From an uncultured Candidatus Binatia bacterium (GTDB lineage Bacteria > Desulfobacterota > Binatia > Bin18), in NCBI GenBank assembly GCA_965207575.1, contig OZ242288.1, forward strand, positions 3,929,879 through 3,993,878: 64,000 nt of DNA. Reading direction: 5' to 3'. Position 1 is the first letter of the stretch; every line of letters begins with the position of its first letter. The notes beneath the pieces were generated by a model that was not told the DNA's origin, searched no databases, and saw only the letters and a list, made by a program, of their open reading frames with translations. Positions 5,679 to 61,024 of this stretch are shown here, one piece after another. Both the position numbers and the translations under genes were made by a program.

Positions 5679-5834
5679 CGAGCCCTCCCTTTTCCAGAAC
5701 CGTTTTCCTCTCTACGCCCTTTTCCCCCCTATTGGCAAGACACGTAGTTTCGAGCACCTGAAACTATTTTTTCATTGACACCAAGTCTGAGATGGACTAG
5801 AGCGATTTCATGTCCTTTGCATGAAAGGCGCGCC

Positions 5835-8108
5835 ATGACTCTTTCCACCCAAGAGACGACAGCCGTCAGGCCCGTCATATGTTGTAGCTGTTCTCAGCAG
5901 TGTGGCGTGCTTGCCCACGTGACGGACGGGCGCATTACCGAGATCAGCGGCGATGCGGCGCATCCGATCAGCCAGGGGTTTGTCTGTATCAAGGGCCGCC
6001 GGGCCGCCGAACTGCACTATCAGGAGGGACGCGTCCACTGGCCACTCAAACGCACCGGGCAACGGGGAGAGGGAGCCTGGCAGCAGGTCAGCTGGGACGA
6101 CGCCCTGGACGATATTGCCGCACGACTCCAAACCCTGAAGCACCAGCACGGTCCTGAGAGTGTTGCCGTCACCTTCGGCACGTTTCATGGCGCGGACTGG
6201 GGCCTTGGCGAGCGCTTTCTGAACCTTTTCGGCAGCCCCAACAGCGCCGGACAGGATAAAATCTGCTCCGGCCCAACAACCATGGCCGAGGCCCTGACCT
6301 ATGGCTATGGCCCGACCGCGCATACTTCTCCCGTCCCCGGCCTGACGAAATGCATAGTGCTGTGGGGGATGCGGCCGAGTGCTTCGGTGCCCCTCCTGTG
6401 GAAGCAGATCGTCAAAGCCCACCGCCGGGGAGCCACACTCATTGTGGTTGACCCCCACTACACGACCGAGGCAAAGCGGGCCGATCTATGGTTGCAGCTC
6501 CGTCCAGGGACGGATGGGGCCTTAGCCTTGGGCTGGCTCTCGGTTCTGATTGAAGAAGGTCTGTACGACCGGGAGTTTGTCGAGCAGTACACCACCGGGT
6601 TCGACGCCTTGCAGCAACACGTGGCCGCCTATTCGCCGCAGCGGGCTGCCGAACTCACCTGGGTCCCAAAAGAACTCCTGGTCAAAGCCGCCCGGCTGTT
6701 TGCCCGCAACCGGCCAGGCATCATCAATAGTGGCAACGGGGTGTGCCAGCTCGGCCCGGCGAGCCTCCAGGCTGCACGGGCAATTGCCTGTCTGGTGGCC
6801 ATCAGCGGCAATCTGGATCGGGAGGGCGGCCACTCCCTGTCCGGCCCTCCCCGGCAGGTCGTGGCAAACGGGGATGTGATGCTGATGGACCGACTGCCCG
6901 AAGAACAGTGGCGCAAGCGACTGGGGATCGATCGCTTTCGTCTTCTGGGCGACGGGTATAAACAGCTTGATGCGGCCATGGCACCGGCCTGGCACGGCAA
7001 GCACCACCTGCTGAGTTGGACGGCTTCGGCCCATGAGCCCAGCCTGTGGCAGGCGATTACCCAGGGCGAGCCGTACCCGGTCAAGGGGCTGTTTGTCCAG
7101 CACCATAATCCGCTGGGTGGGAGTGGCAATGCCAGGCGGGTCGAGCAAGCGCTGCGGAGTGCCAACCTGGAACTGCTGGTGGTCCACGACCTGTTTCTGT
7201 CTCCGACCGCGCAGTTGGCCGACTACGTCCTGCCAGCCAGCCACTGGCTCGAGAAGCCGTCCTTCTCCACCGGCCTCGGCTATATGGGCACCGCCGGCGA
7301 TTACGCCGCGGCGAGCCACGCAGCCATCGAGCCCGAGTATGGTCACCGGAACGATTATGAGCTGTGGAGAGACCTCGGGCGGCGGCTGGGTCAGGAGGCC
7401 GACTGGCCGGAAACCGTTGAGGAGTTCTGGGATACCTGTCTGCGACCGGCCGGCCTCAGCTTTCACACCCTTGCTCAGCAGAGCGGGCCGTGGATGTCCG
7501 CTACGCCACGCTACGGAAAATTCGTTGATCGGTCGGCCCAGGACGATGAACCGCGCTTTGGAACCCCATCCGGGCGGGTGGAGTTACGCTCAGCCATCCT
7601 GACCGACCTCGACTACCCGGCCCTGCCCGTCTACGAGGAACCGGAAATCTTTACGCGCTGGTCGACCGACTATCCGCTGGTGCTGACAACCGGAGGGCGG
7701 GTGATCGAAGGCTTTCACCAGAACAGTCAGCAGATGCCCTGGTTCCGTAAGAAGTATCCCCACCCGGTGGTTCAGCTTCACCCGCACGCCGCGGCGGAAC
7801 TCGGCATTGAGGACGGAATGTGGATCACCATCGAGACCCCAATCGGCAGCGTGCGGCACGTCGCCCGCCTGGATGACACCCTCCATCCGCGCGTCGTCCA
7901 GGCCGACCGCTGGTGGTATCCCGAGCGTCCGGGACAGGCCCCGGAGCTGTACGGTCTGTGGGAAACTAATATCAATGTGTGTACCGACGATGACCCGGCG
8001 CAGTGTGACCCCATGATGGGCACCTGGCTGCTGCGCGGCCTCCCCTGCCGTCTGGTCAAGGCGGAGCCGGCCACCGCCATCGGGTCTTCAGAAACAACGA
8101 GGCAATAA
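5835..8108 (+). CDS. molybdopterin (MopB superfamily) oxidoreductase, formate-dehydrogenase-like, cytoplasmic
   Basis: start moved to MTLSTQE; N-terminal CCSCSQQCGV...ISQGFVCIKG 4Fe-4S cysteine motif of molybdopterin oxidoreductases; ~758 aa; no twin-arginine signal. Confidence 0.7.
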   Translation: MTLSTQETTAVRPVICCSCSQQCGVLAHVTDGRITEISGDAAHPISQGFVCIKGRRAAELHYQEGRVHWPLKRTGQRGEGAWQQVSWDDALDDIAARLQTLKHQHGPESVAVTFGTFHGADWGLGERFLNLFGSPNSAGQDKICSGPTTMAEALTYGYGPTAHTSPVPGLTKCIVLWGMRPSASVPLLWKQIVKAHRRGATLIVVDPHYTTEAKRADLWLQLRPGTDGALALGWLSVLIEEGLYDREFVEQYTTGFDALQQHVAAYSPQRAAELTWVPKELLVKAARLFARNRPGIINSGNGVCQLGPASLQAARAIACLVAISGNLDREGGHSLSGPPRQVVANGDVMLMDRLPEEQWRKRLGIDRFRLLGDGYKQLDAAMAPAWHGKHHLLSWTASAHEPSLWQAITQGEPYPVKGLFVQHHNPLGGSGNARRVEQALRSANLELLVVHDLFLSPTAQLADYVLPASHWLEKPSFSTGLGYMGTAGDYAAASHAAIEPEYGHRNDYELWRDLGRRLGQEADWPETVEEFWDTCLRPAGLSFHTLAQQSGPWMSATPRYGKFVDRSAQDDEPRFGTPSGRVELRSAILTDLDYPALPVYEEPEIFTRWSTDYPLVLTTGGRVIEGFHQNSQQMPWFRKKYPHPVVQLHPHAAAELGIEDGMWITIETPIGSVRHVARLDDTLHPRVVQADRWWYPERPGQAPELYGLWETNINVCTDDDPAQCDPMMGTWLLRGLPCRLVKAEPATAIGSSETTRQ

Positions 8109-11849: not shown

Positions 11850-11878
11850 TTGACAGTCAAACACCCCCCTACAATAAT
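11850..11878 (+). promoter_or_regulatory. candidate sigma70-like promoter (TTGACA-17-AATAAT) upstream of the CoA-transferase gene
   Basis: TTGACA at 11850..11855, 17-nt spacer, AATAAT at 11873..11878 in the divergent intergenic region. Confidence 0.3.
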
Positions 11879-11959
11879 CGCCTGCCAGTGCGGGGAAGCG
11901 GGTTGAGTGGGATGAGCATCAGGTGCTGTGGTATCATTGACGTATAGAGGAGGTAGCGC

Positions 11960-13195
11960 ATGCCTTTCCAATTACGCTACAGCATAGACGGCGAAGAGAT
12001 TACCGTTGTTGCCATTGGGCTGTTTGTCGCCCCGAACAAGATGCTGCTCGAATTGATGCGCCTCGGCGTGCGCGTCATTCTGGTCGAGCCCATTATGGGG
12101 GCGCACCACGGCCGCGGCCTGCCCGACCGGGATCGTGGCCCCCTGAATCGGGCCGGTGTCAGCATCCCCTGGCAGATGCTGCACCGCGGCATGCAGGCGG
12201 TTGCCATCGACTTTCGCCAGGAGGCGGGTAAACGGCTCGTCCTCGACCTTATTCGAGAAACTCATGTGCTAATCAGCAATTGGCCCCCGCGCATGGCGCC
12301 CTGGCTCGACTACACTCATCTGGTCGAGCACTGCGGCCCGTCCGTCATTAAAATCCAGTTCGACGGCGGGCACGACGGGCGGGCAGCCAACGATTACTCC
12401 ATGCAGGGGGCGACCGGCTTAGCCCACGCCACCGGTGAGCCGCACGGCAGACCGCTCACTATTCCGGTGGCGTTTTTCGATATGCTCACCGGCCTGCACG
12501 GCCTGAACGCCTTCCACGTCGCCCTGCGCCGTCTGGCGGAAACCGGGCGGGGCGACTGCTATCAGATCGCGCTGGAACAGGTCGCCTTCCAAACCCTGGC
12601 GGAGTTGGGCTGGTACGCCCAAGCCGAGACAACGGGCGAGGGCCGGGAACCGATCGGCGACAATCTGTTGGACGCCGTCCATGGTCATTACTGCGCCCGT
12701 GACGGGAAGTTCATCACCCTGAACCTGATTGGCGATTCGGTCCTCCGTCGGCTGCGCGAAGCGACCGGCCTGCGCGACCTCGCTCTCGACGAGCAGGGTC
12801 ACGAGATTCACGGCGACCACGCCCGCTATGAGCGGGTCGATACGATTAAGCAGCAAATTGCCGACTGGATTGCGGCCCGACCGCAGGAAGAAGTGCTCAC
12901 GACCCTGGGCCAGGCCGGGCTGGTGGTCGAGCCGTGTCGGGACAGTATCGAAGCGGAACAGCACGCTCGGGCTCTGCCCTGTTTCCATCACGTTGACGAC
13001 CCTGATCTCGGGTCGATCTGGGTGCCCGGCCCGGTGATCGAAGCCCGCGACCTGGAACCTTCCGACCTGCCCAGCGCCCCCCATCCCGGTGAACACACTC
13101 ACCTTGTCCTCAAGGAAGTTCTGGGACTGGCTTCCGAGGAACTGGCGGACTTGGAAAGCCAAAAAATTATCGCCGGTCCGCCACCGGAGGATTAA
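11960..13195 (+). CDS. CoA-transferase family III (CaiB/BaiF/Frc-like) protein
   Basis: 411 aa; LGVRVILVEP and FFDMLTGLHGLNAFHVAL resemble family III CoA-transferase core with the Asp; GAGGAGG RBS. Confidence 0.7.
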   Translation: MPFQLRYSIDGEEITVVAIGLFVAPNKMLLELMRLGVRVILVEPIMGAHHGRGLPDRDRGPLNRAGVSIPWQMLHRGMQAVAIDFRQEAGKRLVLDLIRETHVLISNWPPRMAPWLDYTHLVEHCGPSVIKIQFDGGHDGRAANDYSMQGATGLAHATGEPHGRPLTIPVAFFDMLTGLHGLNAFHVALRRLAETGRGDCYQIALEQVAFQTLAELGWYAQAETTGEGREPIGDNLLDAVHGHYCARDGKFITLNLIGDSVLRRLREATGLRDLALDEQGHEIHGDHARYERVDTIKQQIADWIAARPQEEVLTTLGQAGLVVEPCRDSIEAEQHARALPCFHHVDDPDLGSIWVPGPVIEARDLEPSDLPSAPHPGEHTHLVLKEVLGLASEELADLESQKIIAGPPPED

Positions 13196-13233
13196 GGGAA
13201 GATATTCTCACTCTGACCCAGCGCAGTCCCGTT

Positions 13234-14268
13234 TTAATCGGCTTCCTCATCCGGCCACGGCCGGATGCCAAACGGCAGACGGGTGCGGCGCAGAGAGAGG
13301 CCCTGCTTAATCTGTCGGACGCGGCGGTTGATTACGCTCTGAGCCAGGATATTCTTGGCGTCGAGCAGTTTTTCAAAGGCGGCCAGCCAGCTCTCATAAT
13401 AGATTGGTCTTGTCTCGGTCGGCTGCCGGTCCGCACTGGTAATCTCGGCAATCAATCGCTCCTGAAACTCGGGCCAGGCATAATGACCCTGTTCGCATAG
13501 GGCGACCCCCAGGGCAAACGCAATGCCTTCCCACGGGTCCTGGAACTGGAGTTCGCCGCTCCGCCGGGGCAGAGCGGCAGGACCCTGCATGTCAGAGACG
13601 TGTCTCTGGGAAAGGCCGGGCTGTTGCTGTTTCTCAGGCTCGACCCGCGCCACTCCAATCATCGCGTCCCGCGTGACAATAGCCGTGAGCTCATCGAGCG
13701 TCATCTGCTCCGTACCGGCCGGTCGCTCCGGCAGGACCATATAGCGGGTCTGGAAAGTACTGTTCCAGACCTGAATCTGGATGTTTTCGTCCAGCTCAAG
13801 CCCGAACTCCCGAAGCACCTCGCGCGGCCGGCCGGTGACTCTGGAGCGATACGACTGGCTCTTATACCAGAACGGCGGCAGACCCAGGACCGGCCAGGGG
13901 TAGCATGAGCATAAGGCACAGACGATCACGTTATGCGTCTGGGGCGTATTCTCGACCACGACCAGATGCTCGCCCTGCAAGCCGCCAAGGCCCAGCTCGG
14001 CTATGGCGGCGGTGCCATTCTCGAGCAGACGGACCTTATAGGCGAGGTCCGTCCAGGCCCGGGCAACCACCCGGCAGCCGTTCAGCGGCCCGATATCGTT
14101 TTCATACGAGTCCAGAACGGTATCGAGCAGTGCGCTGGAAACGAAAGTTTTCTCGGTCAGCAGGGCTTCGGTCGCCTTGACCCGAATCTCGCGTTCGCGG
14201 TTCTGGTCGGGCGTCAACTGACGCTGCTGAAAGGCCGCGCCGGTATCATGTTCGTGAGCATCACTCAT
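13234..14268 (-). CDS. nitrile hydratase alpha subunit fused to the N-terminal domain of the beta subunit (NHase/thiocyanate-hydrolase-like)
   Basis: 344 aa; VIVCALCSCYPWPVLGLPPFWYKSQSYRSRV is the NHase alpha metal-binding CxLCSC signature; residues ~215-344 (FQDPWEGIAFALGVAL...EFQERLIAEI...IYYESWLAAFEKLLDAKNIL) match the NHase beta N-terminal domain; GAGGAGG RBS. Confidence 0.7.
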   Translation of the reverse strand: MSDAHEHDTGAAFQQRQLTPDQNREREIRVKATEALLTEKTFVSSALLDTVLDSYENDIGPLNGCRVVARAWTDLAYKVRLLENGTAAIAELGLGGLQGEHLVVVENTPQTHNVIVCALCSCYPWPVLGLPPFWYKSQSYRSRVTGRPREVLREFGLELDENIQIQVWNSTFQTRYMVLPERPAGTEQMTLDELTAIVTRDAMIGVARVEPEKQQQPGLSQRHVSDMQGPAALPRRSGELQFQDPWEGIAFALGVALCEQGHYAWPEFQERLIAEITSADRQPTETRPIYYESWLAAFEKLLDAKNILAQSVINRRVRQIKQGLSLRRTRLPFGIRPWPDEEAD

Positions 14269-19938: not shown

Positions 19939-20814
19939 GTGGACGCATTCGAGTACGCTGCTCCGCAGAATCTACAAGACGCCGTGACGTTGCTGGCCGA
20001 GGCGAGTGGTGAGGCGCGACCCCTGGCGGGCGGAACCGATCTCATTGCCCAAATGAAGGAGAAGCGCCGGAGCCCGGCTCTGGTCGTTGACCTTAAAAAA
20101 ATCCCCGAGCTCAATGTCCTCTCCTACGAGGCCGGGCTCCACATTGGTGCGGCCGTGTCGTGTACGCAGATCGCCGAGTTCGAGCCGGTACGTGTGCACT
20201 ACCCGGCCCTGGCCGAGGCCTGCGCCCTGATCGGCTCGTATCAAATACAGAACCGCGCCGCGCTGGGCGGCAACTTTTGCAACGCTGCCCCCTCTGCAGA
20301 TGCCGTTCCACCGGCTGTATCGTACGGCGCGACGCTGGTGATTGCCGGGCCGGGCGGACAGCGGGAGATTTCGTCAGAAGATTTTTTTGTCGGACCGGGC
20401 CAGACCGTACTGGAAAAAGGTGAGGTCCTGGTCGAGATTGTGATGCCGCCACCGCCACCCCATTCCGGGGCGGCCTATCTACGCTTTATCCCGCGCGAAG
20501 AGATGGACATTGCGGTGGCTGGGGTGGGCTCGTTTGTCCAACTCAGCCCGGACGCTCGCACCTGCGAGCAGGCCCGTATCGTACTCGTCGCGGTTGCGCC
20601 CACTCCCGTCCGGGCAAAAGAGGCCGAGGCGTTTTTAACGGGCAAGGCGCTAGACGACACAACGATTGCCCAGACCGGGGAGCTAGCCTCCCAGGCCGCC
20701 AGTCCGATCTCCGACGTACGCGGCTCGGCGGCCTATCGGATTGAATTGGTAAAAGTGCTGACGCGACGCACGCTGGGCAAGGCGCTGGAGAGAGCCAGGG
20801 GGGAGGCATCATGA
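19939..20814 (+). CDS. molybdenum hydroxylase FAD-binding medium subunit (CoxM/XdhB-like)
   Basis: 291 aa; LAGGTDLIAQMK...AALGGNFCNA motifs; GTG start with AGGAGGG RBS. Confidence 0.8.
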   Translation: MDAFEYAAPQNLQDAVTLLAEASGEARPLAGGTDLIAQMKEKRRSPALVVDLKKIPELNVLSYEAGLHIGAAVSCTQIAEFEPVRVHYPALAEACALIGSYQIQNRAALGGNFCNAAPSADAVPPAVSYGATLVIAGPGGQREISSEDFFVGPGQTVLEKGEVLVEIVMPPPPPHSGAAYLRFIPREEMDIAVAGVGSFVQLSPDARTCEQARIVLVAVAPTPVRAKEAEAFLTGKALDDTTIAQTGELASQAASPISDVRGSAAYRIELVKVLTRRTLGKALERARGEAS

Positions 20815-21287
20815 AGCAGGCGATTGAACTGAACGTCAACGGCGAGCCGCACGCCGCGCTGGTCGATACCCGCGAAACGCTGCTGGACACCCTGCGCTAT
20901 AAGCTGGGCCACATGGGGCCCAAGGAAGGCTGCGGCAATGGCAACTGCGGGGCGTGTACGGTCGTCCTGAACGGCGCCGTCGTCAATGCTTGCCTCGTGT
21001 TCGCCGTAGAAGCCGCAGGTGCGGACGTGACCACGGTCGAAGGGGTTGCGGCTGAGGGCAACCTCCACCCCGTGCAGCAGGCTTTTATTGAACACGGGGC
21101 CTTGCAGTGCGGGTTTTGTACGCCGGGCTTTATCATGTCGGCCAAGGCATTATTGGAACGCAACCCCAACCCGAGCGAACCGGAGATTCGTCTGGCGATT
21201 TCCGGCAACCTGTGCCGCTGCACGGGGTATGACAAAATCGTTCGCGCCATTCAGGCTGCGTCGCAGGCGCTCTCACAAACTGCCTAA
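20811..21287 (+). CDS. molybdenum hydroxylase [2Fe-2S] small subunit (CoxS-like)
   Basis: 158 aa; GCGNGNCGACTV and CGFCTPG...CRCTGY cysteine motifs; ATGA overlap with upstream gene. Confidence 0.85.
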   Translation: MKQAIELNVNGEPHAALVDTRETLLDTLRYKLGHMGPKEGCGNGNCGACTVVLNGAVVNACLVFAVEAAGADVTTVEGVAAEGNLHPVQQAFIEHGALQCGFCTPGFIMSAKALLERNPNPSEPEIRLAISGNLCRCTGYDKIVRAIQAASQALSQTA

Positions 21288-21298
21288 GGAGGGACAGC

Positions 21299-23599
21299 AT
21301 GGCTGAGTATAGTGTGATTGGAACGTCTTTGGCCAAGGTTGATGCCCCGGAACGGGTCACGGGCAAGGCGACCTATGGGGCCGACCTCGATCTGCCCGGC
21401 ATGCTGTGGGCGAAACTCGTTCGTAGCCCGTATGCCCACGCTCGTATCAAGCGTATTGATACCAGCCGGGCCAAAGCGCTGCCCGGCGTGAAAGCCGTCA
21501 TTACCGCGAACGATCTGCCCTCCCTGCCAAAAGGCGCCACCGCTCCCCTGGTGGGAGAAGTCAGCATCGACATGAGCGCCATCCGTGAGATCGTCATGGC
21601 CTCGGATAAAGTGCGCTACCACGGTCAGGTCGTGGCCGCCGTGGCCGCCACCGACCCGTTTATTGCCGAGGAAGCGGCCGGACTGGTTGACGTTGACTAC
21701 GAACCCCTGCCGGTCGTGGAAGACGTCCTCCGGGCCATGCAGCCGGACGCCCCGCTCGTTCACGAAGACCTGCACACGCTCGAAGAGGCGACCCAGGAAA
21801 AGTCCGACCAGCCGAGTAATATTTCCACCCATATGGTCTATACCAGGGGCGATGTTGAGGCCGGGTTCGCCGCGGCCGACGCGGTTATTGAGAAAACGTA
21901 TACGACCCAGATGGTCCACCAGGGCTATCTGGAACCCCAGGCCTGCGCCGCGCGGGTCGAGCCCAACGGCCGGGTCACCTTGTGGACCTCGGCCCAGGGG
22001 CATTTCACCGTCCGGACCCAACTCGTGACCCTGCTCGGCCTCCCCGCCAGTCAACTCAAGGTCGTCCCCATGGAGATCGGAGGCGGATTTGGCGGCAAAG
22101 CCCTGGCGCTGTTTGAGCCCACCGCCATTGTGCTGGCCCAAAAGACCAGCCGGCCGGTCAAACTCGTGGTCTCCCGGGAAGAGGTGCTGCGCGCAACCGG
22201 CCCCGGGGCGCCCGCGGTCATCACCGTGAAAGCCGGCGCCACAAAGGACGGGAAGATTACCGCGCTGACGACAGCCATGCGCTACGATGCCGGCGCCTTT
22301 CCCGGCTCGCCGGTCGCCCGCGGCCTGCTGGTGGGTTTAGCCCCGTATAAGCTGGACAATATGGTCGCCGAAGGGTTTGACGTGCTAACCAACAAGCCCC
22401 GTGTTCAAGCCTACCGCGCCCCTGGCGGCACGCCGGCGGCCTTTGCGGTTGAAGCGCTGATGGATGCCCTGGCGGATGAGATTGGCGTCGACCCGCTGGC
22501 GTTTCGGCAGAAAAACGCCGCCGAAGAAGGCGATACTTTGCCCCTGGGCATGCCGCTCAACCGCATCGGCCTGACCGAGATGCTGAAACAGATTGAGGCG
22601 CATCCGTGCTGGACTACGCCGCTGGAGGGTCCCCACCGCGGCCGAGGACTGGCCCTGGGTTACTGGATCGGTGGCTCCTTCACCTCAAGCGCCGAGGTCA
22701 AGATCAACCCGGACGCCACCGCCTCCATCTTTGTGGGGACCGTGGACCTGACCGGCACCCGGACCACGATTTCCCAGATGGTGGCCGATGAACTCCAGCT
22801 TGATCCCCAAGACATCACCATCACAGTGGGTGATACCGACAGCGCTCCCTTTGCCGACCTGAGCGGCGGCAGCCGGATTACCTACACGATGAGTGCCGCA
22901 GCTCATCAGGCCAGTCAGGACGTGTTGACCCAACTCAAGGAGCGGGCCGCGGAAAAGCTCAAGGTGCCCGTCGCTGAGGTCGAGTATCAGGCCAAACGGT
23001 TCTGGGCCAAGGGTGATACCCGGAACGAAGTCAGCCTGGCCGAGCTGGCCCGCGAGAGTGTGGCCTGGGGCAGCGGGCCGATCATCGGCAAGGGCAGCAC
23101 CACCCGGATGCAGCCGGCCCACGCCTATGCCGCCCATGTCGCGGATGTCGAGATTGATCCGGAAACGGGCAAAGTGACCATCCTGCGCTATACCTGCTTC
23201 CAGGATGTTGGCAAGGCCATCAATCCGACCCAGGTTGAAGGTCAGATCCAGGGAGGGGCCGTGCAGGGCATCGGCTGGGCCCTGAATGAGGAGTATATCT
23301 TTGATAACGGCGAGCTGAAAAACGCCAGCCTGCTGGACTATCGCTGTCCGGTGGCGCTGGACCTGCCCATGATCGAAACCGTCCTGACCGAAGTCCCGGC
23401 CTCCGAAGGTCCCTACGGTCTGCGCGGCGTCGGCGAGGTGCCCATCGTGCCACCGGGCGCAGCCCTGGCTAATGCGATCTACCGCGCCACCGGTACCCGG
23501 CTGTACGAGTTGCCCATGAATCCCGAGCGGATTTTCTGGGCCACGCGCGGCAATGGAGCCAACGGGGCCAACGGGGCCAACGGGTCAGGCGGAGCGTAG
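21299..23599 (+). CDS. molybdenum hydroxylase molybdopterin-binding large subunit (xanthine dehydrogenase/aldehyde oxidase family, CoxL-like)
   Basis: 766 aa; AAGGAGGG RBS; active-site loop reads QAYRAPGG (neither form I AYXCSFR nor form II AYRGAGR); unusual C-terminal NGANGANGANGSGGA tail. Confidence 0.85.
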   Translation: MAEYSVIGTSLAKVDAPERVTGKATYGADLDLPGMLWAKLVRSPYAHARIKRIDTSRAKALPGVKAVITANDLPSLPKGATAPLVGEVSIDMSAIREIVMASDKVRYHGQVVAAVAATDPFIAEEAAGLVDVDYEPLPVVEDVLRAMQPDAPLVHEDLHTLEEATQEKSDQPSNISTHMVYTRGDVEAGFAAADAVIEKTYTTQMVHQGYLEPQACAARVEPNGRVTLWTSAQGHFTVRTQLVTLLGLPASQLKVVPMEIGGGFGGKALALFEPTAIVLAQKTSRPVKLVVSREEVLRATGPGAPAVITVKAGATKDGKITALTTAMRYDAGAFPGSPVARGLLVGLAPYKLDNMVAEGFDVLTNKPRVQAYRAPGGTPAAFAVEALMDALADEIGVDPLAFRQKNAAEEGDTLPLGMPLNRIGLTEMLKQIEAHPCWTTPLEGPHRGRGLALGYWIGGSFTSSAEVKINPDATASIFVGTVDLTGTRTTISQMVADELQLDPQDITITVGDTDSAPFADLSGGSRITYTMSAAAHQASQDVLTQLKERAAEKLKVPVAEVEYQAKRFWAKGDTRNEVSLAELARESVAWGSGPIIGKGSTTRMQPAHAYAAHVADVEIDPETGKVTILRYTCFQDVGKAINPTQVEGQIQGGAVQGIGWALNEEYIFDNGELKNASLLDYRCPVALDLPMIETVLTEVPASEGPYGLRGVGEVPIVPPGAALANAIYRATGTRLYELPMNPERIFWATRGNGANGANGANGSGGA
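23419..23599 (+). repeat. direct repeat copy A (3' end of the coxL-like gene), duplicated at 24274..24453
   Basis: ~180 bp, ~90% identical to 24274..24453 including the GCCAACGGG triplet repeat. Confidence 0.75.
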
Positions 23600-23635: not shown

Positions 23636-23986
23636 CTACTCGTCGGTAGGGGCGGCGGTTTCCCGAGCCAGTTTCTGGGCCACCAAGGCGTTCATACTAA
23701 TACCGGCTCGCCCGGCCTCCATCGCGAGCCGTCGATGCAGGCGTTTATCAATTCGGACGTTAAATTGGCCGCTATACGTTTTCCGGGCAGGAGCGACCGG
23801 CACGGGCTCGTCATGCGCCCGGTAGCTTTCCTTGGCCGCCTCCCAAGCCGTAGCCAACTCCGCCACTGCTTTGACCGGCGTATCGGCAAAGGCCGAAATG
23901 CCAGGCATTTCTACCAGATGCGCCAACCAATCGCCGTCTTCATCCTGGAAGAGATTGACCGAGAAGCCGTCAAAATCATCCTTCAT
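23636..23986 (-). CDS. hicB: HicB-family antitoxin (RNase-H-like N-terminus plus RHH C-terminus)
   Basis: MKDDFDGFSVNLFQDEDGDWLAHLVEMPGISAFADT...SGQFNVRIDKRLHRRLAMEAGRAGISMNALVAQKL; overlaps the hicA end. Confidence 0.65.
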   Translation of the reverse strand: MKDDFDGFSVNLFQDEDGDWLAHLVEMPGISAFADTPVKAVAELATAWEAAKESYRAHDEPVPVAPARKTYSGQFNVRIDKRLHRRLAMEAGRAGISMNALVAQKLARETAAPTDE

Positions 23987-24233
23987 CGCTACGTTCCTCC
24001 TCATAGTACTTTAAAAATTGCTCGACTTGATAACCTTTGGCTCGCTTGCCCTTAGCCTGTACTGACAAGCGCCTCCCTTGGGGCGAATACCAGATGCGGT
24101 GCGAGCCTCGTTGTCGGTCAAAGGTCCAGCCGCACTGTCTAAGCAAGGTTTCAAATTCGTCGAAGCGCAACCCACGGGCATTGCGGATTGCTTTGTCTAG
24201 CAGCTTGGGTTGCTTAGCCATTCTTGTAACCAT
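23976..24233 (-). CDS. hicA: HicA-family toxin (mRNA interferase)
   Basis: 85 aa; ...LRQCGWTFDRQRGSHRIWYSPQGRRLSV typical HicA GSH motif. Confidence 0.65.
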   Translation of the reverse strand: MVTRMAKQPKLLDKAIRNARGLRFDEFETLLRQCGWTFDRQRGSHRIWYSPQGRRLSVQAKGKRAKGYQVEQFLKYYEEERSDEG

Positions 24234-26530: not shown

Positions 26531-26713
26531 TTAATCTTCCTGTACGCTCAGCGCCCCTGACGGGCATTTGGCAACAACGGCCCGCACCTCGTCCTCTGAC
26601 GCCGCGCTGGGATCAATCACGAATTCCCCGCCTTCAACCTTGAAGACTTGCGGCAGGCTCTTCACACAATTTGCCGAATGCGTGCAGACTTCCTCGTCCC
26701 AGTTCACTTTCAT
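26531..26713 (-). CDS. small ferredoxin (3 Cys, [3Fe-4S]/[4Fe-4S] single-cluster type)
   Basis: 60 aa MKVNWDEEVCTHSANCVKSLPQVF...AKCPSGALSV; start moved to internal ATG with GGGAGGG RBS. Confidence 0.6.
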   Translation of the reverse strand: MKVNWDEEVCTHSANCVKSLPQVFKVEGGEFVIDPSAASEDEVRAVVAKCPSGALSVQED

Positions 26714-26933: not shown

Positions 26934-27425
26934 ATGAAACAATTACGCGTGATTACCGAGAAGTGTACGAGCTGCGTGCAGTGCGAGTTGGCTTGTGCCT
27001 TTGTCCAAACCGGGACCTTTCAGCCATCCCGTTCCGTTATTCGCGTCCATATCTTCGACGAGCAGGCCGTCTATGCGCCCTATACCTGCTTTCAGTGCGA
27101 TGAGGCCTGGTGCCTGACGGCCTGTCCGGTGAATGCGATCGGCATTGACCCGGACACGAACGCCAAGGTCGTGCTGGACGATGTGTGTGTCGGCTGTGCG
27201 GTCTGCACGGTAGCCTGCCCATACGGCACCATGTTCTACAATCCAGATAGCCACAAAGCCTTCAAGTGCGACCTGTGTGGCGGTGATCCGGCGTGCGTCA
27301 AGTCATGCCCAACCGGCGCACTCGAATACGTGGATATGGATCAGCCGGACTGGCTGGCCAGTTGGGCGGACAAAGTCAACCAGGGCTTTCAACATATGCA
27401 GGACGAAGAAGGAGGCAACGCATGA
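26934..27425 (+). CDS. aorA: poly-ferredoxin electron-transfer subunit of aldehyde:ferredoxin oxidoreductase (AorA-like)
   Basis: start moved to MKQLRV with AGGAGGG RBS; four CxxCxxC...CP motifs; directly precedes and overlaps (ATGA) the AOR gene. Confidence 0.75.
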   Translation: MKQLRVITEKCTSCVQCELACAFVQTGTFQPSRSVIRVHIFDEQAVYAPYTCFQCDEAWCLTACPVNAIGIDPDTNAKVVLDDVCVGCAVCTVACPYGTMFYNPDSHKAFKCDLCGGDPACVKSCPTGALEYVDMDQPDWLASWADKVNQGFQHMQDEEGGNA

Positions 27426-29281
27426 GCGCGACCAACACAATGCACGGCTGGACCGGGACTGTCCTGCGCGTCAATCTGACCACCGGCACTATCACCAAGG
27501 AGCCGCTGAACGCCGAATGGGCCAGAGACTATGTCGGCGGCCGCGGGCTCGGCGTCAAATATCTCTACGAAGAGATGGACCCCAGCGTCGATCCGCTCAG
27601 TCCGGAAAATAAGATGATCTTTGCCACCGGACCGCTGACCGGCACCAACGCATCCTGTGGCTCGCGCTATATGGTCGTTACCAAGGGCGCGCTGACCAAC
27701 GCCATTACCACCTCGAATTCCGGCGGCTTCTGGGGGCCGGAGATGAAATTCGCCGGCTACGACATGATCATCCTGGAGGGCAAGGCCGCCCGGCCGTCCT
27801 ACCTGTGGATCTATGACGACCGGGTGGAACTGCGCGATGCGACCCATCTGTGGGGCAAGACGGTCTGGCAGACCGAAGAGGCCCTGCGCGCCGAAATCGG
27901 CGTGCCGGACAGCATCATCGCCAGTATCGGCCCGGCCGGAGAAAACCTGGTGCGCTTTGCCTGCATCATGAACGACCTGCACCGGGCCGCGGGCCGGTCC
28001 GGCGTAGGGGCGGTGATGGGCTCCAAAAATCTCAAGGCCATTGCTCTGCGCGGCACCGGCGGCGTCTCTCTGGCCGACCCACAGGCATATATGGAAGGCC
28101 AATGGGCAATGAAGGAAAAGCTGCGGCAGTCGCCCGTGACCGCCGAGGGCCTGCCCATGTACGGCACCGAAGTGCTGGTCAACGTGATCAACGAGCACGG
28201 CGCCCTGCCGACGCGCAACCACCAGCAGACTGTCTTTGATGAAGCCGAAAACATCAGCGGCGAAACCCTGACCGAAACCCGCCTGGTCGCCAATAAAGCC
28301 TGTTTTTCCTGCACCATCGCCTGTGGGCGGGTCAGCACCCTGCCGGGCGAAGCTTCCTCGAAATACTCGGTCACCACCAATCCGCAGAACTGGAAAATCG
28401 CCGGGGAAGGCCCCGAATACGAAGCGGCCTGGGCCATGGGCTCGGAGTGCGGCGTGGGCGACCTGGACGCGCTGATCAAGGCTAACTGGCTGTGCAACGA
28501 CCTGGGTATGGATTCCATCAGCTTTGGGGCCAGCGTGGCCGCGGCCATGGAGTTGTTCGAGAAGGGCGCGGTCGGCCAGGACCAGACCGAGATTCCGTTG
28601 GAGTTCGGTAGTGCCGAAGCCCTCATCGCCATGGCCGAGAAGACCGCCTACCGGCAGGGCTTTGGTGATGCCGTGGCCGAAGGCTCCAAACGCATGACCG
28701 AAAATTTCGGTCGTCCAGAGTTCTTCATGGGCGTTCGCGGTCAGGAGTTTGCCGCATATGAAGCTCGTGCCATTCAGGGCATGGGCCTGGGCTATGCGAC
28801 CTCCAACCGCGGGGCGTGTCACTTGAAAGCCTATACGGTGGCGGCCGAAATTCTGGGCCTGCCGCGTCAGATGGACCCGCGCGCCACAGAAGAGAAGGCA
28901 GAGATTACCAAAATCTTCCAGGACGCGACCTCGACCGTTGACGCCACCGGCCTGTGTCAATTCCTCACCTTTGGGGTTGGTCTTGAAGAAATGCTGCCCC
29001 AACTGTCGGCCGCCACAGGCGTAACGTATACGCAGGAAGAACTGGTCCACATTGGGGAGCGTATCTGGAACCTGGAGCGGCTGTGGAACGAACGGGCGGG
29101 CTTCACCGGCAAGGACGACACCCTGCCCAAACGGATTCTGGAAGAGCCCATCCCATCCGGCCCGGCCAAAGGCGAGGTCAACCGTCTGGGGGAAATGCTG
29201 CCCGAGTACTACGAGCTGCGAGGCTGGGAGAAGGACGGCAAAATCTCCGAGGCAAAGAAGAAAGAGTTGGGGCTGGAGTAA
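27422..29281 (+). CDS. aorB: tungsten-type aldehyde:ferredoxin oxidoreductase, catalytic subunit (AOR family)
   Basis: ~620 aa; N-terminal GWTGTVLRVNLTTGTI...YVGGRGLGVKYLYEE... and ...ASIGPAGENLVRFACIMND...RAAGRSGVGAVMGSKNLKAI are AOR family hallmarks. Confidence 0.85.
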   Translation: MSATNTMHGWTGTVLRVNLTTGTITKEPLNAEWARDYVGGRGLGVKYLYEEMDPSVDPLSPENKMIFATGPLTGTNASCGSRYMVVTKGALTNAITTSNSGGFWGPEMKFAGYDMIILEGKAARPSYLWIYDDRVELRDATHLWGKTVWQTEEALRAEIGVPDSIIASIGPAGENLVRFACIMNDLHRAAGRSGVGAVMGSKNLKAIALRGTGGVSLADPQAYMEGQWAMKEKLRQSPVTAEGLPMYGTEVLVNVINEHGALPTRNHQQTVFDEAENISGETLTETRLVANKACFSCTIACGRVSTLPGEASSKYSVTTNPQNWKIAGEGPEYEAAWAMGSECGVGDLDALIKANWLCNDLGMDSISFGASVAAAMELFEKGAVGQDQTEIPLEFGSAEALIAMAEKTAYRQGFGDAVAEGSKRMTENFGRPEFFMGVRGQEFAAYEARAIQGMGLGYATSNRGACHLKAYTVAAEILGLPRQMDPRATEEKAEITKIFQDATSTVDATGLCQFLTFGVGLEEMLPQLSAATGVTYTQEELVHIGERIWNLERLWNERAGFTGKDDTLPKRILEEPIPSGPAKGEVNRLGEMLPEYYELRGWEKDGKISEAKKKELGLE

Positions 29282-29286
29282 AGGAG

Positions 29287-29422
29287 GTCTATTGAGTCAT
29301 TGGGTCTATTGAGTCATTGGGTCTATTGAGTCATTGGGTCTATTGAGTCATTGGGTCTATTGAGTCATTGGGTCTGTTGAGTCATTGGGTCTGTTGAGTC
29401 ATTGGGTCTGTTGAGTCGATTG
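29287..29422. repeat. tandem array A: 17-bp unit GTCT(A/G)TTGAGTCATTGG x ~7.5 (palindromic TGAGTCA core)
   Basis: read directly; five units with A then three with G at position 5; last unit degenerate; 17-nt period excludes coding. Confidence 0.9.
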
Positions 29423-29440
29423 AGTCTTTGAGACCCAAAG

Positions 29441-29530
29441 GACCCTAAAGACCCAAGAGACCCTAAAGACCCAAGAGACCCTAAAGACCCAAGAGACCCT
29501 AAAGACCCAAGAGACCCTAAAGACCCAAGA
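29441..29530. repeat. tandem array B: 18-bp unit AGACCCTAAAGACCCAAG x 5, approximately the reverse complement of array A
   Basis: read directly; AGACCC recurs every 9 bp on the top strand and is the complement of the GGGTCT recurring in array A. Confidence 0.9.
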
Positions 29531-29551
29531 GACCTACAAGGAACACACGTC

Positions 29552-30982
29552 ATGGCACACCACATCATTATTGGAGGGGGACCGGCCGGGGTGGCCGCAG
29601 CGGAAACGATCCGGGCGACAGCAGGCTCCGAAGCGCAGATCACGCTCATCTCCAATGAGCCCGCCTACTCGCGCATGGTCCTGCCCTACTATCTGGCGAA
29701 CGATATTCCGGAGCGGCATGTGCTGACCGGAGACGCGGCCTATTTCGAACAACACGGCATTACGTCCGTGTCGGGCCAGGTCGAAAAAGTCGATGCCCAG
29801 GCGCGCACGGTTACACTCGGTGACGGCTCAAGCCACACGTTTGATACCCTGCTCATCGCGACCGGCTCTTCGGCCCAACGTCCTCCTATTGCCGGCATTG
29901 ACCAGGAAGGCGTGTACACCTTCTGGACGCTCGAAGACGCAAAACAGGTCATGGCGAAAGCGCAGGGAACGCCCAGGGCGGTGCTCATTGGGGCCGGCTT
30001 TATTGGCTTCATCGTCTTGAACGCCATGGCCAAGCTGGACTGGAATCTCTCGGTGGTTGAAACCGAGGCACAGGTCTTGCCGCGCATGCTCGACGCCACT
30101 GGCGCGCAAGCGGTCGAAGGCTGGCTGACCAGCCAGAATGTAGCCGTTCATACCGGCGCGCAGGTCCAAAGCATTAGCCGTGAAGGTGAGGCACTCAACC
30201 TGTCGCTGAGCAATGGAGCAAACCTAAGCGCGGATATTGTCATTTTGGCTACGGGTATTCAGCCCAACCTGGGCTTTCTCAACGGCTCCGGTATCCACGT
30301 TGACGACGGCATCGTGGTTGACGACCGCATGCAGACCAATATTCCCGGCATCTATGCGGCCGGTGATGTTGCCGCCGGCCCGGACCTGCTGAATGGCTCG
30401 CCCGCGGTGCATGCGATTCAGCCAACGGCCGTGGACCACGGTCGGATTGCCGGCGCCAACATGGCCGGCCAGGAGACACACTATCCGGGCAGCCTGCTGC
30501 TCAACGTGTTGGATGTCATCAATCTGCACTGCGCCAGCTTTGGCCAGTGGCGGACAGATGCGAAGGAGTCGATCACCACCGTCTGGAACCCAACGCGCCC
30601 GATTTATCGTAAATACGTCTGGGACGGCGACCGCATGGTCGGGGCGCTGTTTGTCGGACCGATAGATGACGTCACCATGCTGAACGACGTCGGTATGGTC
30701 AAAGGACTCATTCAGACACAACAGGCCCTGGGAAACTGGGCAGACTACGTCAAAGAGAACCCGACCGATGTGCGCCGCGCCTATGTCGCTACCGGGACCG
30801 CGCAGAAACTGGTCAGTCATACCCTCTTGGGCGCACCCGCTACAGCGCGCGCCTACCGGGTAGACGGGAAGACACCCTCGGCCTGGCAAAAAGGCTCGCA
30901 CGGCCCGCTTATCGGCTCTCGCCCGGACGCGCTGGATACGCTTCCACGGACACCGACACCAGGCATTGAAAAGGGTGAATAA
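29552..30982 (+). CDS. aorC: FAD-dependent pyridine-nucleotide-disulfide oxidoreductase (AorC-like NAD(P)-linked subunit)
   Basis: 476 aa; HHIIIGGGPAGVAAAE and LIGAGFIGF dinucleotide folds; IYAAGDVA motif. Confidence 0.75.
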   Translation: MAHHIIIGGGPAGVAAAETIRATAGSEAQITLISNEPAYSRMVLPYYLANDIPERHVLTGDAAYFEQHGITSVSGQVEKVDAQARTVTLGDGSSHTFDTLLIATGSSAQRPPIAGIDQEGVYTFWTLEDAKQVMAKAQGTPRAVLIGAGFIGFIVLNAMAKLDWNLSVVETEAQVLPRMLDATGAQAVEGWLTSQNVAVHTGAQVQSISREGEALNLSLSNGANLSADIVILATGIQPNLGFLNGSGIHVDDGIVVDDRMQTNIPGIYAAGDVAAGPDLLNGSPAVHAIQPTAVDHGRIAGANMAGQETHYPGSLLLNVLDVINLHCASFGQWRTDAKESITTVWNPTRPIYRKYVWDGDRMVGALFVGPIDDVTMLNDVGMVKGLIQTQQALGNWADYVKENPTDVRRAYVATGTAQKLVSHTLLGAPATARAYRVDGKTPSAWQKGSHGPLIGSRPDALDTLPRTPTPGIEKGE

Positions 30983-30985
30983 TCG

Positions 30986-31231
30986 ATGCAGGTCAGTATC
31001 AAGCTCTTTGCCAATCTTCGGAAAAAGCTACCCAAAGGCTCTCTGGGGAAAGCGACGCTTGATCTCGCAGATCAGGCAACGATCAACGATCTGATTCACC
31101 AACTCGACATTCCTCTCGACCTGGCCCAGATGGTCCTGGTCAACGGCGAGCAGACCCGGGAGTTCGGCCAGGCGCTTGCGGACGGAGACCAGGTCAGCAT
31201 CTTCCCGCCGGTGGCCGGCGGGAGCGAATGA
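30986..31231 (+). CDS. MoaD/ThiS-family sulfur-carrier-like protein (C-terminal GG followed by two extra residues)
   Basis: 81 aa, ends ...IFPPVAGGSE; beta-grasp size; immediately follows aorC. Confidence 0.55.
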   Translation: MQVSIKLFANLRKKLPKGSLGKATLDLADQATINDLIHQLDIPLDLAQMVLVNGEQTREFGQALADGDQVSIFPPVAGGSE

Positions 31232-31245
31232 AACGTCCGTGACGT

Positions 31246-31282
31246 AAAAAGGCGGTCAAACCGTTTCTATAACCCGCCTTTT
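31246..31282. terminator. bidirectional rho-independent terminator hairpin between convergent moaD-like and cocE-like genes
   Basis: AAAAAGGCGG-loop-CCGCCTTTT perfect inverted repeat with A/T runs on both sides. Confidence 0.4.
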
Positions 31283-44926: not shown

Positions 44927-45086
44927 AGAAAACCTCCTCATTCAGCAGTCTCGTCGTTGTGACGAACCCGCACCATATGCCGCGCATTATTGGGCTGTCA
45001 ATCTTGAGCCAGGGTTGAGGGCCGCGCTCCCTCGCCAAGACCGGCGGGGATGTGGTATAGCAGCTTTCGAGAAAGGATCGATTCCC

Positions 45087-45980
45087 ATGTCCCTGACATT
45101 CCGCAAACTTCACCCCCATTTCGCGGCCGAGGTCAGCCCCATTGATCTCCGCCAGGTAACTGACTCCGAGGCGCTGCTGGAGATTCGCGCCGGCATGGAC
45201 GAGTACGCCCTGCTCGTCTTCCGTAACCAGCACTTCACGGACGAGGAGCACCTGGCCTTCGCCCAACGCCTGGACGGCCAGTTACACACCAAGACCGGCA
45301 TCAGCGCCCTCCAGAAGAACCGACTGGGCAACGAGGCATTGGCCGATGTCTCCAACCTCAACGCGAACGGGGAGGTCTATCAGGCCGATGACCGCAAGCG
45401 CATGTACGGCCTGGGCAATCGGCTGTGGCACACGGACGCCTCTTTCCAGGACCCGCCCGGACGCTACTCCATGCTCTTTGCCAGAGTCGTCCCGCCCGTC
45501 AGCGCGGACACGGAATATGCCGACATGCGGGCGGCCTATGACCGCTTATCGGACGCAATGAAGGCCCGGCTTGAGGGGCTGCGCGTGCATCACTCCATCG
45601 CTCACTCGCGCCACGTTCTGGGTTTCGAGTTTTCCCAAACGGAGCAGGAGATTCTCAAGGGCGCGATTCATCCCCTGATCCGCGCCCTGCCGCGCACGGG
45701 TCGCAAGTCGCTCTACATCGCGGCGCACGCCTCCAAAATCATCGACTGGCCGATTCCCGAAGGCCGCCTGCTGCTGCTCGAACTGATTGAGCACGCCACC
45801 CGACCGGAGTGTGTCTACCGGCACTCCTGGCAGGTCGGAGACCTCGTGATCTACGATAACCGGGCGACCATGCACCGGGCTCGGCCGTATGCAGACACGA
45901 CATACCGGCGTGAACTGCGGCGGGTGACCTCGCTGGATGTCGAGTACGGTATCGAGCAGGCGGGCGCGGCACCCCATTGA
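45087..45980 (+). CDS. TauD/TfdA-family Fe(II)/2-oxoglutarate dioxygenase
   Basis: start at internal ATG; WHTDASF...(HxD) and IYDNRATMHRA motifs; paralog of 55028..55891. Confidence 0.75.
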   Translation: MSLTFRKLHPHFAAEVSPIDLRQVTDSEALLEIRAGMDEYALLVFRNQHFTDEEHLAFAQRLDGQLHTKTGISALQKNRLGNEALADVSNLNANGEVYQADDRKRMYGLGNRLWHTDASFQDPPGRYSMLFARVVPPVSADTEYADMRAAYDRLSDAMKARLEGLRVHHSIAHSRHVLGFEFSQTEQEILKGAIHPLIRALPRTGRKSLYIAAHASKIIDWPIPEGRLLLLELIEHATRPECVYRHSWQVGDLVIYDNRATMHRARPYADTTYRRELRRVTSLDVEYGIEQAGAAPH

Positions 45981-55027: not shown

Positions 55028-55891
55028 TCACACCCGGATGTCTTCGACCGTGCTCCGGCGCAACTCTCGTCGCCGGGAAAGATCGTAGCGGCGGCCACGA
55101 TGCAGGACAGCGCGATTGTCCCAGATCACCAAGTCGCCCGGACGCCAGGTATGGCGGTACACAAACCGACGTTGCGTCGCGTGCTCTAAGAGCTCGGCGA
55201 GCAGGAGCCGCCCTTCCGGGACGGGCCAGCCCACAATATGCGTGGCATGCGCCCCGATAAAGAGCGTCTTACGCTGGGAGCCCGGATGGGTACGGACGAT
55301 AGGCCATGCCACAGTTGGGTATTTGGCCAGATCTTCCGGCGTGTACTGCTGGTCGCCGAGCTGGATACGCGAATGAAAGGCGGAGTGTTCGGCCACCAGC
55401 CCCTCGATCTCCGCCTTGAGCGTGTCCGGCAGCGCCTTGTAGGCTGCACGCATATCCGCGAACTCGGTTTCCCCTCCCGGCTCGGGCACAATGCAGGCCA
55501 GCAGCAGGGAATACTTGGCCGGCGGTTGCTTGAACGAGCTATCGCTGTGCCAGAGTTGGTTGGCCAGCATGGTAATCAGGCGTGGGTCGTCCCGCGCCAG
55601 AATCTGACTTTCGAGATCGACGTTGGAGATGTCGATCATTCCGGCCTCCTTGAACCGGCTCCGCCGCTGCAACACCTTGAGCAACCCCATATCAACGGGA
55701 CCGAGTGCGCGGGTAAACGCCATCTGCCGGGATTCGTCCAGAACCTGGTCGCGGAAGACCAGCACGGCGAACTCATCCAGAGCCGCCTCAATCTCGGCTG
55801 CTAAATCTGCATCAATTGGCCGCCGCAGATCAATCCCTTGGACCTCGGCAACGAACACGGGATGCAATGGAGACAGGGTGAGGGTGTGCAT
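55028..55891 (-). CDS. TauD/TfdA-family Fe(II)/2-oxoglutarate dioxygenase
   Basis: start moved to MHTLTL with AGGAGGG RBS; WHSDSSF and IWDNRAVLHRG motifs. Confidence 0.75.
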   Translation of the reverse strand: MHTLTLSPLHPVFVAEVQGIDLRRPIDADLAAEIEAALDEFAVLVFRDQVLDESRQMAFTRALGPVDMGLLKVLQRRSRFKEAGMIDISNVDLESQILARDDPRLITMLANQLWHSDSSFKQPPAKYSLLLACIVPEPGGETEFADMRAAYKALPDTLKAEIEGLVAEHSAFHSRIQLGDQQYTPEDLAKYPTVAWPIVRTHPGSQRKTLFIGAHATHIVGWPVPEGRLLLAELLEHATQRRFVYRHTWRPGDLVIWDNRAVLHRGRRYDLSRRRELRRSTVEDIRV

Positions 55892-60983: not shown

Positions 60984-61024
60984 ACAGGTCGCCCTGACGG
61001 CACGTGAATAAAGGAGAAACCAGC

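Follow-up and report, generated by a model that had tools for sequence, protein, structure and literature searches.

Which kind of aldehyde oxidoreductase (AOR) would be carried by a bacterium whose genome otherwise looks aerobic? This question is raised by a four-gene aor operon at positions 26934-31231 of a 64,000-nucleotide stretch of contig OZ242288.1 from an uncultured Candidatus Binatia bacterium (the whole stretch is referred to below as the window). A preliminary description of the window had read the operon as a three-subunit AorABC enzyme linked to nicotinamide adenine dinucleotide (NAD) rather than the ferredoxin-only form, and our analysis supports this at the sequence level: AorA, AorB and AorC all have their best structural match in the Aromatoleum aromaticum enzyme (8C0Z), with AorB tied between 8C0Z and 9MQX. 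With good confidence, we assign the locus to a cytoplasmic, Class III (N-type) AorABC of clade 87 of the tungsten family, accompanied by one pterin-maturation accessory protein (AorD/WorX).

Layout of the aor operon

The operon and the elements that adjoin it are as follows.

26531..26713, minus strand: Fer4_19 mono-cluster ferredoxin, 60 amino acids, 3 Cys (Pfam 4e-17), divergent from aorA
26934..27425, plus strand: aorA (WorS), poly-ferredoxin of 163 amino acids (Pfam Fer4 families, PDB 8c0z_C, Cys positions)
27422..29281, plus strand: aorB (WorL), catalytic pterin-cofactor subunit of 619 amino acids (AFOR_N and AFOR_C, PDB 8c0z_A)
29282..29551, plus strand: aorB-aorC intercistronic spacer with two mutually complementary tandem arrays (Tandem Repeats Finder, RNA folding)
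29552..30982, plus strand: aorC (WorN), flavoprotein of 476 amino acids binding flavin adenine dinucleotide (FAD) and NAD(P) (Pyr_redox_2, PDB 8c0z_E)
30986..31231, plus strand: aorD/worX-like beta-grasp gene of the ThiS/MoaD family, 81 amino acids (ThiS, moaD_arch)
31247..31282, strand not assigned: terminator-like hairpin, -17.2 kcal/mol (sequence and fold)

The four co-directional genes lie in the order that had been described (ferredoxin, AOR, FAD/NAD subunit, MoaD-like protein), the Fer4, AFOR_N/AFOR_C, Pyr_redox_2 and ThiS domains expected of them were all matched in Pfam, and the catalytic subunit, described as having about 620 residues, has 619 when read from the ATG at 27422. A ribosome-binding site (GGAGGG) precedes aorA. 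The aorB start codon overlaps the aorA stop codon as ATGA and is located 6 nt past a GGAGG, which indicates that aorA and aorB are translationally coupled, and aorC is separated from the moaD-like gene by 3 nt. The hairpin downstream, AAAAGGCGG-N18-CCGCCTTTT, is located between the convergent moaD-like and S15 hydrolase genes and was recognized by eye and by folding; the terminator pattern scan covered loops of up to 8 nt and therefore missed this hairpin, whose loop is longer. The scan for sigma-70 promoters and terminators detected nothing exceeding the shuffle expectation, including no promoter 5' of aorA.

For comparison we used 80 related loci (L001-L080) from uncultured bacteria of about seven phyla, 1.6 Mb in total. 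The A-B-C order is kept in every untruncated locus, a homolog of AorC is collinear with aorAB in every locus that reaches past aorB, and the moaD-like gene is found 3' of aorC in at least 53 of the 80. The ratio of nonsynonymous to synonymous substitution (dN/dS) against orthologs was 0.02-0.17 across the four genes (0.03-0.08 for aorB and 0.05-0.17 for the moaD-like gene), with dS up to about 1.7. Since this indicates purifying selection on all four, we regard them as real, functional genes and not chance open reading frames (ORFs).

Class of the enzyme

The catalytic subunit is of the AOR type. Both of its domains are full length (AFOR_N, 6e-86; AFOR_C, 1.4e-144; Pfam), and its scores against structures of this type were 752.9 bits (8c0z_A), 752.2 bits (9MQX) and 679 bits (1AOR). 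More distant were FOR (331 bits), WOR5 (208 bits), BamB (200 bits) and the NCBIfam GAPOR family (34 bits). A clustering with the FOR, GAPOR or WOR5 families, which would have spoken against the preliminary description, was thus looked for and not found, with AOR-type scores of 679-753 bits against at most 331 bits. The identity of AorB was 57.8% to A. aromaticum AorB, 56.6% to the WorL of 9MQX and 53.4% to Pyrococcus furiosus AOR, and by these values AorB by itself appears nearly equidistant from the three. The near-tie among 8C0Z, 9MQX and 1AOR arises because the three are members of a single published clade, 87, which comprises AaAorB, AmWorL and PfAOR and within which the class is set by the subunit composition (PMC13328260, PMC12318220). 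Therefore, the class call rests on AorC, on the C-terminal tail of AorA, and on an insertion in AorB. This insertion (residues 310-327, roughly 15 amino acids) is also present in A. aromaticum AorB and is missing from the WorL of 9MQX and from 1AOR.

Residue mapping placed the ligands of the AorB [4Fe-4S] cluster at Cys294, Cys297, Cys301 and Cys512. The second-shell residues Thr249, Glu334, Tyr446 and His467, which correspond to T243, E313, Y427 and H448 of the P. furiosus enzyme, are intact, and AorB also carries the HRAAGR, CNDLGMD and VDATGLC motifs. The cluster cysteines and the second-shell Thr, Glu, Tyr and His, as well as the cysteines of AorA, are the residues named in previous work (PMC12096430, PMC13328260).

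AorA matches Fer4_11, Fer4_7 and related 4Fe-4S dicluster families (Fer4_11, 9e-14), and its 16 cysteines, arranged in four C-x2-C-x2-5-C-x3-C motifs, would suffice for four [4Fe-4S] clusters. Its top PDB match is 8c0z_C (178 bits, 53% identity), followed by a match of 108 bits. The alignment to 8c0z_C extends through the C-terminal helix (LASWADKVN versus MQAWAAKAN), whereas the alignments to the WorS of 9MQX and to the Fe-S subunit of WOR5 end at the ferredoxin fold, before the helix. It has been reported that this helix of about 20 amino acids mediates filament formation, is necessary for it, and occurs in the AOR_Aa subclade only (PMC10413684). In the window its motif reads DWLASWADKVN, and the pattern D-W-[LV]-x-x-W-[AG]-[DE]-K-V-N is kept, across phyla, in all related loci that retain aorA.

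AorC is a Pyr_redox_2 protein (1.4e-54, Pfam) in which the dinucleotide-binding motifs are GGGPAG (residue 8) and GAGFIG (residue 147), and its top PDB match, 8c0z_E (290.8 bits, 40.6% identity), is followed by one of 158 bits. The top NCBIfam matches of AorA and AorC are PadI (91 bits) and PadH (264 bits), respectively, which could be taken to mean that the two proteins are parts of a PadEFGHI-type phenylglyoxylate:NAD+ oxidoreductase instead of an AOR. We give this practically no probability: both scores are far under the curated cutoffs (700 and 475), both proteins score higher against the AorA and AorC of 8C0Z, aorA is translationally coupled to aorB, and no genes for a 2-oxoacid:ferredoxin oxidoreductase are located nearby. 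Together, the cutoffs, the 8C0Z scores, the coupling and the gene context effectively refute a PadHI identity.

The assignment to Class III (N-type) is made because AorC is collinear with aorAB, AorA has the C-terminal helix, and AorB shares its insertion with AaAorB. Classes IV (bifurcating) and V (membrane-bound or Tat-exported) are ruled out, because no Bfu-type WorABC genes occur within 15 kb on either side of the operon, and AorA, which starts with MKQLRVITEKCTSC, has no signal peptide, no twin-arginine translocation (Tat) signal and no transmembrane segment.

The locus was also compared with the closest known systems. The A. aromaticum EbN1 AorABC(DE) (8C0Z; Class III, N-type, clade 87) shares with the window the A-B-C order followed by a MoaD-like gene, the four [4Fe-4S] clusters and the helix motif of AorA, the cluster and pterin ligands, second shell and insertion of AorB, the FAD and NAD GxGxxG motifs of AorC, and the cytoplasmic location. 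The two differ in that the identities are only 53% (AorA), 58% (AorB) and 41% (AorC), and in that the window has only one MoaD-like gene, an AorC lengthened at its C-terminus by about 55 amino acids and a 270-bp hairpin spacer; furthermore, the window comes from an uncultured Binatia bacterium of the aerobic type, and A. aromaticum is a denitrifying betaproteobacterium. The bifurcating WOR1 of Acetomicrobium mobile, WorABCSL (9MQX; Class IV, clade 87), is equally similar in its large subunit (752 bits, 56.6%) and has a homologous, nanowire-forming small subunit. In contrast to the A. mobile system, the window has no BfuABC-type WorABC genes; WorL is without the AorB insertion, and WorS matches AorA less well (108 versus 178 bits) in an alignment that ends before the C-terminal helix. 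The catalytic subunit of P. furiosus AOR (1AOR; Class I, clade 87) is 53% identical and shares the cofactor ligands, but this single-subunit enzyme is a homodimer without AorA or AorC, depends on ferredoxin and is extremely sensitive to O2.

A. aromaticum AorC has no counterpart of the extension of AorC (window 30800-30982, residues about 420-476). Conservation of this extension across phyla is partial, and its last residues read LPRTPTPGIxK in Binatia and Methylomirabilota.

Several points weigh against the assignment. By alignment, AorC shares only 41% identity with the prototype and has the additional C-terminal extension, and the operon contains one MoaD-like gene, as opposed to two (aorD, aorE) in A. 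aromaticum. In a sparse neighbor-joining tree anchored by three references, the AorB of the window fell within a large environmental clade, the sister group of (AaAorB + AmWorL), and was not nested with AaAorB. A search with AorB for cultured or named homologs gave none among the best 120, which have at least 81% identity and are all uncultured. In addition, genes for the supply of the metal and its cofactor were sought with negative results. No tungstate or molybdate transporter (tup, wtp or mod) was found in the window or in the 1.6 Mb of the 80 loci, where the part of the host searched corresponds to about 64 kb out of 4-5 Mb; neither the window nor the conserved neighbors of the loci contained moeA, moaE, moeB/thiF or JAMM genes; and no Rfam family, including the riboswitch for the molybdenum or tungsten cofactor, reached its gathering score in the window. 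A permissive riboswitch scan of the leader and the spacer returned MIR856 only, with a score of 42 bits where the gathering score is 297; this match is spurious and was caused by the long hairpin described below.

Metal and cofactor

The assignment of tungsten follows from family membership, and the metal is most probably tungsten. The same architecture could use molybdenum instead, as has been proposed for E. coli YdhV. Molybdenum in seawater is far above tungsten, and the host is aerobic and probably marine or sponge-associated, an environment in which molybdate vastly exceeds tungstate. Furthermore, tupABC and wtpABC were unseen in every neighborhood examined, and two bona fide molybdenum-type enzymes are encoded in the same window. 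It has also been shown that WOR clade 41 contains both tungsten and molybdenum users, which are told apart by the presence or absence of TupABC (PMC13328260). However, all characterized enzymes of clade 87 are tungsten dependent (PMC12096430, PMC13328260), TupABC is present in virtually all microbes with Class I-IV WORs (PMC13328260), and the pterin-binding and second-shell residues of AorB match those of tungsten enzymes. The absence of tup means little when such a small part of the genome was inspected. We therefore consider molybdenum unlikely, though it is the alternative to which we give the most weight, and retain tungsten as the probable metal. The window encodes two further pterin enzymes (5775-8108 and 19939-23599), which implies that the genome must contain the pterin-cofactor pathway.

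The protein encoded downstream of aorC matches ThiS (3e-12, Pfam) and moaD_arch (NCBIfam, 6e-11), the latter with 42.7 bits, under its cutoff of 49.5. Scores against TIGR01682 and PRK11130, which represent bona fide MoaD, were 29 and 21 bits against cutoffs of 66 and 94, and moaE was not found in the window. The protein would thus not qualify as a bona fide MoaD, the small subunit of molybdopterin synthase. As had been described, it carries two residues after the Gly-Gly motif, its C-terminus being ...FPPVAGG-SE (Ser-Glu). Among orthologs the residues past Gly-Gly are hypervariable (0-17 amino acids, unrelated to each other), which fits a tail that may be dispensable or cleaved; no JAMM or other protease for such a cleavage was detected in the window or among the conserved neighbors of the loci. 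WorX, a ThiS-like accessory gene beside many WOR genes, encodes a similarly small ThiS/MoaD-family protein with a Gly-Gly motif, in or beside the WOR operon, and differs in that the protein of the window has the two additional residues (PMC13328260).

The A. aromaticum operon carries aorD plus aorE (PMC6365974). Second MoaD-like types (clusters 24 and 51) were sought across the window and not found. Some related loci of other lineages (L039, L040, L063, L066 and L067-L078) have, between aorB and aorC, a second beta-grasp ORF of about 90 amino acids, ending in ...HGARGYPGG, which the window lacks. The GARGYPGG and FPPVAGG types probably correspond to the aorD/aorE pair of A. aromaticum.

Predicted function in an aerobic host

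Gene content and order, coupling, ligands, homology and selection are shown by the sequences themselves. From homology to the A. aromaticum enzyme, we infer not only the metal but also the coupling to NAD+, filament formation, the substrates and O2 tolerance. The bis-pyranopterin metal center of AorB, most probably containing tungsten, would oxidize a broad range of aldehydes to carboxylic acids. Electrons would pass from this center to the [4Fe-4S] cluster of AorB and on to the four clusters of AorA; AorA would oligomerize via its C-terminal helix to form an Aor(AB)n nanowire, from which a single AorC at the cap would hand the electrons on, via its FAD, to NAD+. The beta-grasp protein would act as a sulfur-carrier-like factor in cofactor maturation, with the residues past Gly-Gly presumably removed or irrelevant.

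The preliminary description placed the operon in an aerobic-type, high-GC context, and this reading is sound: the GC content of the window is 55-66%, and genes for O2-dependent enzymes and oxidases are present, namely six luciferase-like monooxygenases (LLM), two TauD dioxygenases, an anthrone oxygenase, and flavin and copper amine oxidases. An NAD-dependent aldehyde dehydrogenase is also encoded in the window. Murphy et al. reported that all Binatota genomes that they analyzed encode an aerobic respiratory chain (PMC8262859). In such an aerobic heterotroph, the likely role of AorABC would be aldehyde scavenging or detoxification with a gain of NADH, and the aldehydes would come from the amine oxidases, TauD dioxygenases and monooxygenases encoded in the window.

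Alternatively, the enzyme might run reductively or in a hydrogenase-like manner, converting acids to aldehydes or reducing NAD+ with H2. In vitro, the AOR of A. aromaticum reduces acids and NAD+ with H2 as the donor (PMC9295118), uptake hydrogenases that tolerate O2 are encoded by Binatota (PMC8262859), and an aldo/keto reductase gene is located 2 kb downstream in close relatives. However, the reduction of acids is slow and requires donors of very low potential (PMC6365974), for which NAD(H) is too positive as a driver; the linkage to the aldo/keto reductase is gone beyond close relatives; and aldehyde-generating oxidases and oxygenases are abundant in the window. The reductive direction is thus highly improbable, and oxidation of aldehydes with NAD+ as the acceptor remains the direction that we prefer.

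The small divergent ferredoxin had been suggested as the electron partner of the enzyme. Its gene is adjacent to and divergent from the aor operon in the window and in L001-L025, in which AorB is at least 88% identical. It heads a minus-strand string (Fer4_19, macro-domain and LolA-like genes), and it is together with these macro-domain and LolA-like genes that it adjoins the operon in those loci only. The adjacency is lost in all relatives with AorB identity of 85% or lower, though aorABC persists there, and AorABC has a built-in NAD+ exit in AorC. Because the adjacency is limited to close relatives and comes with the ferredoxin's own co-directional string, it represents ordinary synteny. The ferredoxin is therefore probably outside the aor system, and we would be even more surprised to find it a dedicated electron partner than to find the enzyme working in reverse.

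The aorB-aorC spacer

The 270-bp spacer between aorB and aorC, which the preliminary description did not mention, is the most unusual feature that we observed. It consists of a 17-bp unit repeated 8.6 times (29286-29432) followed by an 18-bp unit repeated 5.8 times (29431-29534). Both arrays are made of 9-mer subunits of the form TTGGGTCT / AGACCCAA and are mutually complementary as inverted repeats, so that the whole spacer folds as one long imperfect hairpin (-113.8 kcal/mol, z -5.9). In close relatives, including near-identical genomes, a spacer of the same design is 85-150 nt long, indicating that the copy number varies. The spacer is a lineage-specific, hypervariable insertion, because the 9-mer array occurs at the aorB-aorC site only, as searched in the window and the 1.6 Mb of related loci. 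In the next tier of Binatia (L020-23 and L031-33) the aorB-aorC spacer is merely 16-23 nt, which rules out the hairpin as a universal feature of this junction.

Some close relatives (L002, L007 and L015-L018, around 11885-11907) have an unrelated hairpin, CCCTCTCCC...GGGAGAGGG, in the aorB-aorC spacer. This repetitive extragenic palindrome (REP)-like CCCTCTCCC-N-GGGAGAGGG hairpin is also dispersed at unrelated intergenic sites (L006:9421, L012:12403, L015:9358, L019:386, L025:19529, L026:6994, L035:16623 and L039:3651). In L006, a close relative, an ORF of 379 amino acids whose N-terminus resembles that of a lipoprotein (…LLLMAGC) replaces the hairpin between aorB and aorC (11872-13011).

A role of the hairpin in the AorAB:AorC stoichiometry is speculative; its appeal comes from the structure of the enzyme, an Aor(AB)n filament with a single AorC cap (PMC10413684). 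In its broadest form, the idea would be that the hairpin is a tunable element that, by protecting the 3' end of aorAB or by attenuating read-through into aorC, sets a high AorAB:AorC ratio and thereby the length of an O2-exposed, N-type nanowire common to the phyla of sponge-type symbionts (Binatia, Latescibacterota, Gemmatimonadota and Dehalococcoidia). We consider this unlikely, slightly more so than the use of molybdenum. If true, changes in hairpin copy number would lead to strain-level variation in the Aor(AB)nC nanowire.

Distribution and variation among related loci

The homology search returned at least 7,996 matches at E <= 1e-100 among 8,000 scored candidates, and the 90% cluster of the nearest database match alone comprises 278 sequences. 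AorB is 94-99% identical to genes of many metagenome-assembled genomes (MAGs) of Candidatus Binatia and 65-74% identical to genes of Latescibacterota, Gemmatimonadota, Dehalococcoidia, Methylomirabilota, Myxococcales and Planctomycetota MAGs. An identity of 65-74% is unusually high for orthologs between phyla, which suggests that the aor operon may have spread horizontally. The related long-read MAGs seem to resemble sponge-symbiont communities and those published with sponge genome notes, in one of which symbionts from Binatia, Latescibacteria and Chloroflexota are named (PMC12648040). Recurrent neighbors in the 80 loci, as judged by reading the sequences, look like genes for acyl-CoA dehydrogenase, LLM, rhodanese, methyltransferase and outer-membrane proteins, and none of the conserved neighbors is cofactor-related.

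In 27 loci, a tandem second aorB paralog, about 59% identical to the AorB of the window, is located between aorB and aorC (ranges L043-L065 and L067-L077, about 11950-13800; Latescibacterota/Gemmatimonadota-type and Dehalococcoidia MAGs). This arrangement implies that in these bacteria a single AorA wire might be decorated with a mixture of AorB proteins. In the Binatia loci L026-L028 and L031-L033 (about 4900-7900), there is an extra upstream aorA-aorB pair, followed by another small ORF that ends in Gly-Gly (...VGIAGG) and without aorC. The extra AorB of these loci forms the most divergent branch of the tree, and the pair looks like a Class II-like paralog.

Other features of the window

Features outside the aor operon are listed below.

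5775-8108: bis-molybdopterin guanine dinucleotide (bis-MGD) oxidoreductase
13234-14268, minus strand: 344-aa ORF, putative fused alpha-beta nitrile hydratase
19939-23599: CoxMSL-type molybdenum hydroxylase
23636-24233: HicA/HicB toxin-antitoxin pair, between coxL and the LolA-like gene
45015-45980 and 55028-55912: TauD dioxygenases
61004-62974: copper amine oxidase

In close relatives, synteny with the aor operon extends to the CoxMSL genes. Among the 80 related loci HicA was detected in L002 only, and HicA/HicB is suggested to be a recent mobile insertion. The 344-aa ORF combines a full nitrile hydratase alpha domain (3.7e-81) and a beta N-terminal domain, apparently as a fusion of the two chains.

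Significance of the locus

The aorABCDE operon was described by Arndt et al. in 2019, together with the occurrence of three-subunit, comparatively O2-tolerant bacterial AORs in aerobic and denitrifying mesophiles (PMC6365974), and a 2026 classification names Class III and the ThiS-like accessory WorX (PMC13328260). The preliminary description implied that an AOR in an aerobe is a surprise; the aerobic context was borne out, but the finding is not unexpected, since the 2019 work already notes aerobic and denitrifying hosts (PMC6365974). A further WOR-family precedent in an obligate aerobe is the BmWOR of Brevibacillus massiliensis (clade 83, Class I; PMC9424855), which differs from the enzyme described here in belonging to another clade and in being monomeric and ferredoxin-dependent; the closest solved structure of clade 83, H. 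volcanii WOR83 (9Q1T), gave 460 bits against AorB. The locus extends a known enzyme class to phyla for which this class had not been discussed before, rather than representing a new kind of system. Minor distinctions are the single MoaD-like gene, the AorC extension, the hairpin spacer, and the tandem aorB duplications in sister lineages. To our knowledge, a single NAD-linked, nanowire-forming Class III enzyme of the tungsten AOR family has been characterized to date, and we know of only one AOR-family enzyme shown to be produced by an obligate aerobe.

Intact and strongly constrained AorABC is common among uncultured lineages of the aerobic type, such as Binatia, Methylomirabilota, Latescibacterota, Gemmatimonadota and Dehalococcoidia. 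This raises the concrete question of where such organisms would obtain tungsten, or whether they use molybdenum instead, and the locus supplies candidates for O2-tolerant biocatalysts that interconvert acids and aldehydes.

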